Below are positions 15,465 to 54,548 of a stretch of 64,000 nucleotides of DNA, in pieces. The stretch lies in IMG/VR virus record IMGVR_UViG_3300028388_004772, positions 64,001 to 128,000 of that record. One strand, 5' to 3'. The position numbers and the translations under genes are program-made. Within the stretch, counting starts at the first letter, position 1, and each line of letters begins with the position of its first letter. The notes beneath the pieces are model-generated. The model was given only the letters and a program-made list of their open reading frames with translations, made no database searches and was not told the origin of the DNA. The stretch is from a virus.

Positions 15465-15612
15465 AATGTAATTTCCTCTCAAATTCATATCTAAGCATTC
15501 TGAGGTTTTCGATCTTCTCTTCCACCTCAGAAGTTTTGTTACCGACCTCTTCTAGGAATCCAAGGTCCTCATCAATTTCATTTAATTTTTGAATGATCTC
15601 TTCATGCGTCAT
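15421..15612 (-). CDS. Hypothetical coiled-coil protein
   Basis: ATGA coupling to the upstream gene. Confidence 0.5.
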   Translation of the reverse strand: MTHEEIIQKLNEIDEDLGFLEEVGNKTSEVEEKIENLRMLRYEFERKLHYDKITKAPANQEGC

Positions 15613-15875
15613 ATTACCAAACCAGAAACAGCCTGAACATAAGCCTTCTGGAATTCCTCGTTTGTTGGTGTGATAAACACATAGTTACTGATTGTGATCT
15701 TTCGAGTCTGTAATTGACCAGATACACAAACACCCTTTGCAAAACCTAGCCCTTGCTCGTTCTGCATTAATACTCGTGGATCCTCAAGTGAAATTTCACC
15801 ATCCTTTCCATTAATGTATTTACCTACAATCTCTCCTGCTAGAGAAAAAACTGTTACGATATCACCTTTTTGCAT
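15609..15875 (-). CDS. Hypothetical Sm-like beta-barrel protein
   Basis: GDIVTVFSLAGEIVGKY...YVQAVSGLV; AAGGA RBS. Confidence 0.65.
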   Translation of the reverse strand: MQKGDIVTVFSLAGEIVGKYINGKDGEISLEDPRVLMQNEQGLGFAKGVCVSGQLQTRKITISNYVFITPTNEEFQKAYVQAVSGLVI

Positions 15876-15902
15876 TACTTATTCCTTCTTACTAAAATAA
15901 AA

Positions 15903-16059
15903 GGCGGAACGGGGGGATTCGGGTAACCCCCAAGGAGGTACTATCTGATGTACCTTTCCGAATGGACCTCCTACGACCTGACGTTCCCGCTAAGGACATG
16001 GGCGCTACCCCTTCGGTCTACCTTACCCCCCATCAGCGAGAGGTATTCGGTCACGTTCC
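15903..16059 (-). ncRNA. Expanded tRNA-like ncRNA (~157 nt)
   Basis: GGAACG/CGTTCC acceptor plus G-CC, D-stem ACC/GGT with an inserted hairpin, enlarged anticodon domain, long variable arm, GGGGG-TTACCCGAAT-CCCCC T-arm; lies in the tRNA cluster. Confidence 0.7.
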
Positions 16060-16068
16060 TATCGGGGC

Positions 16069-16097
16069 AGCGGTCTACCAGACTGACCTATACTCCG
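16069..16097 (-). pseudogene. 5' half of a tRNA (Pro-like)
   Basis: CGGAGTA-TA-GGTC-AGTCTGGTA-GACC-GCT gives the acceptor 5' strand and D-arm; anticodon arm, T-arm and 3' strand are missing. Confidence 0.6.
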
Positions 16098-16104
16098 TAA
16101 ACTG

Positions 16105-16155
16105 TGGCGCCTTTTGTTCGTTGCAAAAGGTTTCCAGTGACGCCCAACTGGAGAC
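16105..16155 (-). ncRNA. Small two-hairpin/pseudoknot RNA element ending in CCA
   Basis: TCCAGT/ACTGGA and CCTTTTG/CAAAAGG stems; loop GGCG can pair with 3' CGCC(A). Confidence 0.4.
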
Positions 16156-16156
16156 T

Positions 16157-16231
16157 TGGAGTGGACGACAGGATTCGAACCTGCCTAAAACTGATTTGCA
16201 GTCAGTCGCCTAACCTATCAGCCACGTCCAC
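16157..16231 (-). tRNA. tRNA-Cys(GCA)
   Basis: Cloverleaf GTGGACG...ACTGA-CTGCAAA-TCAGT...GGTTCGAATCC...CGTCCAC-T-CCA. Confidence 0.95.
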
Positions 16232-16236
16232 AAAAT

Positions 16237-16313
16237 TGGCCTGCTCGGCAGGATTCGAACCTGCGACCCTCTGCTTAGAAGGCAGATGTTCTATCCAACT
16301 GAACTACGAGCAG
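16237..16313 (-). tRNA. tRNA-Arg(TCT)
   Basis: Cloverleaf CTGCTCG...TCTGC-CTTCTAA-GCAGA...GGTTCGAATCC...CGAGCAG-G-CCA. Confidence 0.95.
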
Positions 16314-53936: not shown

Positions 53937-54220
53937 GTTTCCGTGCCTTGTGGTGGAAATAACTGAAAGTTGTCACCAGATGAAATAACACATGTCGTTT
54001 GCTTTTGTTTGTTTGTTACAATGAAGGACCAAGTCTTTGTCCGTGGATTCACCCAAAAAGAATGGGCCAAATCTTCACCATCTTCATTTTTACTTGGTGC
54101 CATAAAGATAATTTCCTCTTTATATCTTTCACGAAGGCCCTCCAATAAATTTTGTGAAGGACCACACATAATCGGTAATTGTAATTCGAATGCAGCTACG
54201 GCTGCCAGTAAGAAGCTCAT
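53933..54220 (-). CDS. Hypothetical secreted protein
   Basis: PIMCG...YKEEIIF...VNPRTKTWS...CVISSG; GGAG RBS. Confidence 0.65.
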   Translation of the reverse strand: MSFLLAAVAAFELQLPIMCGPSQNLLEGLRERYKEEIIFMAPSKNEDGEDLAHSFWVNPRTKTWSFIVTNKQKQTTCVISSGDNFQLFPPQGTET

Positions 54221-54235
54221 AGCTTACATCTCCAA

Positions 54236-54495
54236 AAAAGTAGCCCGTTGGATTACAAGGTGGGCCAGACCCCGTTTAGCCTCAAGCGGCTAAAGCGTAA
54301 ACGTCATCGTTTGCGTTTATTTTAAGTCCTTGCATTTTCGGCTAATGATCTAACACCCGCCTGAGGTAGCTTGCGCACCTATTCTCCACAAAGCCTTGGG
54401 TCGCCGTCGAATCTATTTCGGTCCCATCAGAAACACTCCTCGAAGTGCTTTTGGTGGAACCGCCGGGTACTGCCCCCGGGTCCGTCAACTTATCT
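54236..54495 (-). ncRNA. ssrA: Two-piece (circularly permuted) tmRNA, tag ANDDVYALAA
   Basis: 3' module GACCCGGGGGCAGTACCCGGCGGTTCCACCA precedes an intervening hairpin and 5' module GGGACCGAAATAGATTCGAC; G3:U70 pair; tag ORF at 54314-54282; terminator-like end. Confidence 0.9.
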
Positions 54496-54519
54496 CTTTG
54501 CTTCACTGAATTCTACTCT

Positions 54520-54548
54520 ATTATATATTAATTTTTTATTATCGGCAA
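54520..54548 (-). promoter_or_regulatory. Sigma70 promoter for the tmRNA
   Basis: TTGCCG-N17-TATAAT. Confidence 0.65.

Follow-up and report, generated by a model that had tools for sequence, protein, structure and literature searches.

The locus and its surroundings

A 141 kb virus genome deposited in IMG/VR, that of a marine T4-like myophage, carries on its minus strand, downstream of two tRNA genes, a conserved folded RNA with a core of 157 nt. The nearest named relatives of this genome, judged by tRNA-gene similarity only, are Pelagibacter phage Mosig and Methylophilales phage Melnitz. The window referred to throughout is the whole stretch of it that was analysed, 64,000 nt long (positions 64,001 to 128,000 of record IMGVR_UViG_3300028388_004772). 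Conservation of the RNA in marine T4-like phages was established by comparing 27 distinct homologues from viral contigs, and its minus-strand text reads GGAACGUGACCGAAUACCUCUCGCUGAUGGGGGGUAAGGUAGACC...CCCCCCGUUCCGCC, followed by UUUUAUUUU. The principal features of the locus are as follows.

16237-16313, minus strand: tRNA-Arg(tct), upstream of the RNA
16157-16231, minus strand: tRNA-Cys(gca), upstream, ending 97 nt before the RNA
16066-16097, minus strand: orphan 5' half of a tRNA-Pro (acceptor strand, D-arm and anticodon-stem strand), recognised by comparison with the relative L214
15903-16059, minus strand: manA-type RNA core, a five-way junction (full-length match to RF01745, 186.8 bits with the clade model R1 described below, covariation in 27 homologues)
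15609-15875, minus strand: nearest ORF downstream, which encodes 88 aa without a family match and begins 27 nt beyond the RNA

The 88-aa ORF has an AAGGA ribosome-binding site and is read from the same strand as the RNA; beyond it lie small ORFs and genes for a late transcription factor resembling gp33 and a single-strand DNA-binding protein resembling gp32. Upstream of the tRNA-Arg and tRNA-Cys genes there are promoter-like sites at 16403-16375 and 16350-16323, and the spacer that follows tRNA-Cys (16098-16156, minus strand) is about 60 nt long and has two hairpins. Elsewhere in the window (54191-54544, minus strand) there is a permuted two-piece tmRNA of alphaproteobacterial type with the tag ANDDVYALAA, a type that hints at an alphaproteobacterial host; one relative discussed below, L039, has a tmRNA about 1.9 kb after its own copy of the RNA.

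The window copy has lost sequence on both of its flanks. In the close relative L214 the order is tRNA-Cys, about 200 nt of spacer, tRNA-Pro, a hairpin, the RNA, a second hairpin, tRNA-Trp and the same 88-aa ORF. Because L214 has the whole of tRNA-Pro and the hairpin that follows it, we read the corresponding region of the window as bearing a 64-nt deletion, which took away the second (3') half of tRNA-Pro together with the small hairpin's 5' strand; the remaining tRNA-Pro half is fused to CCGAUA (16060-16065), the last bases of the usual 5' hairpin. On the other flank, at about 15893-15894 on the minus strand, a deletion of 108 nt relative to L214 removed the downstream hairpin and tRNA-Trp. 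The RNA core retained all of its base pairs despite both deletions. The tRNA-Cys/tRNA-Pro spacer of L214 is GC-rich and unrelated to the spacer found in the window, and it may be another structured RNA.

The fold and a covarying loop-loop pairing

An earlier note on this DNA had described a non-coding, highly structured RNA that would be unable to decode, and comparative analysis bears this out, the RNA having no anticodon loop and a cloverleaf-like topology. Our homologue set, drawn from motif scans of IMG/VR, consists of 27 distinct sequences of the 157-nt core, and the structure scored on it comprises eight helices and one loop-loop pairing, that is 42 pairs or 1134 pair cells. Standard pairs fill 97.5% of these cells, and both partners have changed in 23 of the 42 pairs. 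In none of 500 column shuffles were the observed pair values reached; when the 3' partners were slid by 1-3 columns as a control, both-side changes were seen at 0-3 pairs as against the 23 observed; and an earlier alignment of 16 sequences had given the same outcome. Every helix of more than one pair holds pairs with both-side changes, with the exception of a 2-bp AC/GU clamp, which is invariant in the 27 homologues. Comparative support for the fold is far beyond chance. Single-sequence thermodynamics yielded a z of -0.86, which is not beyond chance, and the minimum-free-energy structure disagrees with the fold that covariation supports.

The alignment shows the RNA to be a five-way junction made up of a closing stem and four arms. 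Junction linkers, read off the covariation-scored structure, measure 2/1/2/1/0 nt, the last of these meaning that the closing stem passes into the 3' hairpin without a break. The elements are listed below in RNA order, except that the loop-loop partner stands beside arm 1 and the two strands of the closing stem are placed together.

16054-16059, minus strand: closing stem, 5' strand GGAACG, pairing with 15906-15911 (100% paired; both-side changes at 4 of 6 pairs)
15906-15911, minus strand: closing stem, 3' strand CGUUCC, directly after the last hairpin with no linker
16020-16051, minus strand: arm 1 (manA 'P3'), with the AC/GU clamp, conserved GAAUA, stem CCUCUC/GGGGGG and loop GCUGAU (from covariation)
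16032-16036, minus strand: CUGAU of the arm-1 loop, complementary to AUCAG at 15945-15949 as a kissing loop or pseudoknot (from covariation)
15975-16018, minus strand: arm 2 domain, stem GACC/GGUC around two hairpins (from covariation)
16000-16011 and 15985-15996, minus strand: inner hairpins of arm 2, with UAGCG in both loops (from covariation)
15933-15972, minus strand: arm 3 (manA 'P8'), stem AGGAGGU/ACCUCCU and a 26-nt loop (both-side changes at 5 of 7 pairs)
15912-15931, minus strand: arm 4, hairpin GGGGG/CCCCC with the 10-nt loop UUACCCGAAU (100% paired; both-side changes at 3 of 5 pairs)
15894-15905, minus strand: tail GCC and U-rich tract UUUUAUUUU (from the sequences of relatives)

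Five of the six helices that the earlier note had proposed agree with this structure. Its 6-bp outer stem and its 3' hairpin with a 10-nt loop both covary, as does its GACC/GGUC stem, which encloses about 36 nt holding the two small UAGCG-loop hairpins. What had been drawn as a D-arm with a hairpin is correct as regards CCUCUC/GGGGGG, which covaries inside the clamp, while its extra pairs are invariant. The sixth helix, a 'variable arm' AGGTAC/GTACCT, proved wrong: the helix that covaries is instead the 7-bp AGGAGGU/ACCUCCU of arm 3, and the proposed pairing is refuted because GAAAGGUAC is invariant while its 3' partner changes in relatives such as L016.

The single-stranded blocks GUGACCGAAU, GGUAAGGUA, GAAAGGUAC and UACCC are invariant in the clade, and the third of them lies together with AUCAG in the 26-nt loop of arm 3. 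At the 3' side, the U-rich tail is kept in most relatives, where it often touches the 5' end of the next tRNA, and it could serve as a 3'-end or processing signal. Just 3' of the U-tract, five relatives (L006, L039, L190, L214 and L227) share a conserved hairpin, GGAAUGACUGCGCC...GACAGUCCC, sometimes with a second U-run after it; this hairpin is missing from the window.

The contact between the loops of arms 1 and 3 had no place in the earlier description. CUGAU and AUCAG are paired in 27 of 27 homologues with both-side changes at 3 of 5 pairs, relatives in the clade having, for example, CCGAA/UUCGG, CACAU/AUGUG or CAGAU/AUCUG. A second manA clade shows covariation in this loop pair as well (GUAAC/GUUAC, GUAGC/GCUAC, GAGAG/CUCUC and GAUAG/CUAUC), where the pairing was read from aligned relatives, the comparison of single-sequence complementarity with shuffles being uninformative. 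Covariation of this kind fits an intramolecular pseudoknot and an intermolecular kissing loop alike. We infer that the pair corresponds to the one published with a question mark as 'pseudoknot?' and to the L3-L8 contact of a recent preprint, a mapping made through helix order and the GNRA loop named L6 in the preprint. A 6-bp pairing of AUUCGG in the window copy with CCGAAU, between the arm-3 loop and the last loop, was considered and rejected, as it is not kept in relatives. GGUA in the arm-3 loop is also complementary to UACC in the last loop; both are invariant, hence there is no covariation to read.

Membership of the manA family and comparison with tRNAs

The manA RNA was described as a probable cis-regulatory RNA and possible riboswitch, found in marine metagenomes and T4-like cyanophages and drawn with a doubtful pseudoknot (Weinberg et al. 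2010, PMC2864571). The earlier note had called for an Rfam search and a covariance model built from homologues, and the first of these led to this family: at a relaxed threshold, all 192 positions of RF01745 aligned to the window RNA with a score of 48.3 bits (E 2.4e-11), and a search of the whole 141-kb genome gave E 1.3e-12 for the same RNA. The gathering score of the model is 55.2 bits, under which the window RNA falls; the other clade members scored lie at 44.8-51.5 bits, and the clade is missed at the Rfam threshold. Viral loci with the family blocks GUGACNGAAUA...GGUAAGGU have RF01745 scores that descend by degrees from 132.6 to 41.5 bits, so that canonical manA and this clade are joined without a gap. 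In the reciprocal direction, a covariance model made from this clade alone (R1) found 16 of the 16 Rfam-positive manA loci searched (E 1.5e-12 to 1.7e-3), and L022 as well, and found none of eight chance-pattern loci. Because the match is full length, the scores are graded and detection by R1 is reciprocal, membership of the wider manA family is well supported. On these sequence comparisons we regard the RNA as a reduced, divergent member of that family from the tRNA gene arrays of uncultured marine T4-like phages.

Likeness to manA extends to particulars. The blocks GUGACYGAAUA and GGUAAGGU, which flank the first arm, are both present at 16026-16053 (minus strand); among the 27 members GUGAC, GAAU and GGUAAGGUA are invariant, whereas the Y position (C or U) and the last A (A or G) vary. 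The order of elements in manA, namely closing stem, hairpin arm, multi-hairpin domain, long arm and terminal hairpin, is found here with covariation, and the two share the covarying complementarity of the arm-1 and arm-3 loops and marine T4-like phages as carriers. The differences are these: (i) in all 27 members the inner domain has two hairpins, not the three of canonical manA, the model positions of the third being deleted in the cmscan alignment; (ii) the clade has invariant blocks of its own, GAAAGGUAC and the last loop UUACCC; (iii) it is found steadily in tRNA arrays, the family being typed as a 5'-UTR element; and (iv) the manA hairpin 5' of the closing stem, which relatives have as GUUCGGUG...CACCGAU, is destroyed in the window copy.

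A blastn search of the RNA against 50,697 phage records returned zero matches, leaving the clade with no known cultured phage among them, and the Melnitz phage has no convincing manA-type copy (12.3 bits with RF01745, no match with R1). Matches listed for the loose pattern GAAAGGTAC..TACCC were almost all chance. Among the 120 pattern matches listed from cellular genomes the sole genuine copy is on a 1730-bp contig (L293, CALBDR010000389.1) binned with a Melainabacteria MAG, which is probably mis-binned phage DNA.

The earlier note had favored a tRNA mimic, for example a decoy for anticodon nucleases or synthetases, and in its broader form such a mimic would engage RNase P, the CCA-adding enzyme, synthetases or anticodon nucleases. 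The topology gives some reason for this idea: the five-way junction with its short linkers, and the 6-bp closing stem stacked on a 5-bp 3' hairpin, recall a class II tRNA (RF00005), and the RNA is located in tRNA arrays. On the other side, neither ARAGORN nor the Rfam tRNA-clan models matched 15903-16059, even at E<=10. The stem has 6 bp and not the 7 bp of an acceptor; there is no T-loop signature, no GG of a D-loop and no 7-nt anticodon loop; the 10-nt 3' loop varies among the 27 members at the would-be T-loop core positions; and NCCA is not conserved, the tail after the closing stem being GCC, GCA, GCU, ACU, CAU or GAC. Furthermore, the RNA belongs to a family with many members away from tRNAs, and we obtained no finding in favor of a decoy for anticodon nucleases or synthetases. 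We consider a tRNA mimic very improbable.

A second part of the mimic idea concerned phage T4, whose stable RNAs rnaC and rnaD (species 1 and 2) occupy an equivalent place, rnaC having a tRNA-like 3' domain. The analogy of position was well drawn: both systems have small non-coding RNAs, stable in T4 and predicted to be so here, directly 3' of a same-strand phage tRNA gene, the order in T4 being tRNA-Arg, rnaD, rnaC and in the window tRNA-Arg, tRNA-Cys, tRNA-Pro remnant, manA-type RNA. The words CCGA..GTAGCG..GGAACGT, which the earlier note had likened to rnaC, do occur there, but similarity at the level of models is absent. RF01745 gave no match to the T4 rnaC/rnaD locus at E<=10 and R1 none at E<=1, and homology was rejected on these grounds. 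T4 rnaC is in fact the more tRNA-like of the two RNAs, with a canonical T-arm (GGUUCGAAUCC) that the window RNA is without. We also observed that rnaC (L092, 2910-3002, minus strand) has a weak tRNA-Sec-like match of 17.5 bits (E 1.1), obtained through its T-arm and an acceptor-like stem.

tRNA arrays, probable release and possible assembly

In 22 of the 27 clade members the closing stem is preceded, at a distance of 25-27 nt, by the end of a tRNA on the same strand (Cys, Asn, Arg, Thr or Pro), and the gap is occupied by the small conserved hairpin that the window copy has lost. A tRNA also begins 7-50 nt after the RNA in 8 of the 27, sometimes right behind the U-rich tail. tRNAs are absent from the neighborhood in only a single lineage (L036 and L233), and one further copy is at a contig end. 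The first downstream ORFs of the clade fall into at least 10 unrelated groups, among them a clamp-loader-like protein and small orphans. In other manA clades the setting differs from member to member, some adjoining tRNAs (L025, L040) and others soon preceding a ribosome-binding site. In the canonical cyanophage manA of L008 (3334-3597) an upstream terminator and a promoter-like site (TTGACG-17-CATACT) are followed by the RNA and its own downstream terminator, a layout that is that of a free-standing small RNA gene.

These data bear on the published classification of the family, under which the RNA would be a cis-acting 5'-UTR element, a riboswitch candidate acting on the 88-aa ORF and the genes that follow it, either through termination or by covering the ribosome-binding site. 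In favor of this, both Rfam and Weinberg et al. 2010 (PMC2864571) place manA among cis-regulatory RNAs and possible riboswitches, a U-rich tract stands behind the closing stem, and members of another manA clade have a ribosome-binding site and start codon no more than about 25 nt downstream (as in L014 and L021). The position of the ORF in the window, with its ribosome-binding site on the same strand only 27 nt away, is compatible with such a role. Several observations argue otherwise: the next gene, at 50 nt or less, is a tRNA in those 8 of the 27 clade members; downstream ORFs are unrelated from one member to another; in L214 a hairpin and tRNA-Trp come between the RNA and the very same 88-aa ORF; and in the window we saw no alternative pairing between the RNA and the ribosome-binding site, while a simple scan for a terminator after the RNA found none. 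We therefore think a cis-acting element unlikely.

It is also conceivable that the RNA is a passive structured spacer of a tRNA operon, one that guides or insulates processing or ends the transcript and has no function once released. The constant distance of 25 nt to the upstream tRNA, through a conserved small hairpin, would suit a spacer, as would a U-rich tail that adjoins the 5' end of the next tRNA, and the closing stem followed by the U-tract might resemble a termination or RNase E signal. Processing spacers, however, are not normally in need of about 40 pairs, invariant blocks and a covarying loop-loop contact. Moreover, some homologues have no tRNA beside them and seem to possess a promoter-like site and a terminator of their own, and the window copy keeps every pair though both of its flanking tRNAs are lost. 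A spacer of this kind seems to us quite unlikely.

We favor, with slightly more belief than doubt, a composite reading: this is a manA-family RNA embedded in tRNA arrays that is processed out as a stable free RNA and possibly self-assembles. The RNA would share a transcript with tRNAs, started in this genome by a promoter that precedes tRNA-Arg and tRNA-Cys, and host tRNA-processing nucleases would release a stable species of about 160-185 nt. Upstream, release would come about through 3'-end processing of the preceding tRNA and, in relatives, through an RNase P cut at the next tRNA downstream; the 3' end of the RNA would be at the U-tract. The RNA would then act as a free molecule and not as a switch of the next gene. 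That it acts free is argued from the at least 10 unrelated groups of downstream ORFs and from the terminator and promoter layout in L008, and excision from the tRNA transcript is the probable route. Counting against the composite reading are the score under the gathering cut-off, the one family hairpin that is missing and the destruction of the 5' hairpin in the window.

Self-assembly is the more tentative part of the favored reading. By analogy only with cryo-EM of other manA RNAs, the complementary loops may pair between copies as kissing loops and so yield closed homo-oligomers. According to the preprint concerned (bioRxiv 10.64898/2026.07.01.735769), manA RNAs build pentamer-based assemblies in vitro, namely octamers, decamers and a 60-mer with the form of an icosahedral shell. 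The intermolecular kissing loops that hold them are L5-L7', L8-L9' and, in one construct, L3-L8'. The L5-L7 contact would have no counterpart in the window RNA because the third inner hairpin is missing. That text (July 2026) makes no mention of tRNA.

The family has been labelled a 'riboswitch candidate' since 2010, and the 2026 preprint reports RNA-only cages in vitro with no discussion of tRNAs. What the present clade contributes is its setting: the fixed spacing of about 25 nt from a tRNA, the covarying loops and the lack of a conserved downstream gene together speak for manA-type RNAs as independent products of tRNA operons, not switches. A 157-nt construct with defined loop pairs would also make possible a direct comparison of intramolecular with intermolecular pairing.

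Such an origin in tRNA operons would link these RNAs to GOLLD and ROOL. Both are phage RNAs described as 'often near tRNA islands', and both assemble into nanocages (PMC12286853); by analogy we see in them the closest parallels to the manA-type RNA. The likeness would be one of possible working: RNAs of phages or prophages, often beside tRNA islands, that make closed assemblies of RNA only, although assembly of the RNA described here is itself argued by analogy. There is no homology of sequence or structure (the window has no Rfam match for either), and GOLLD and ROOL are 500-800 nt or more in length (PMC12286853) as against 157 nt here. As a speculation to which we attach little probability, manA-type RNAs could be a third and much smaller phage class after GOLLD and ROOL, produced from tRNA operons and assembling by themselves into closed shells within the infected cell. 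On this view their junction, which is like that of a class II tRNA, and their location in tRNA arrays could go back to an ancestral tRNA gene and to a task connected with tRNAs or translation, such as holding phage tRNAs or shielding them from host nucleases.
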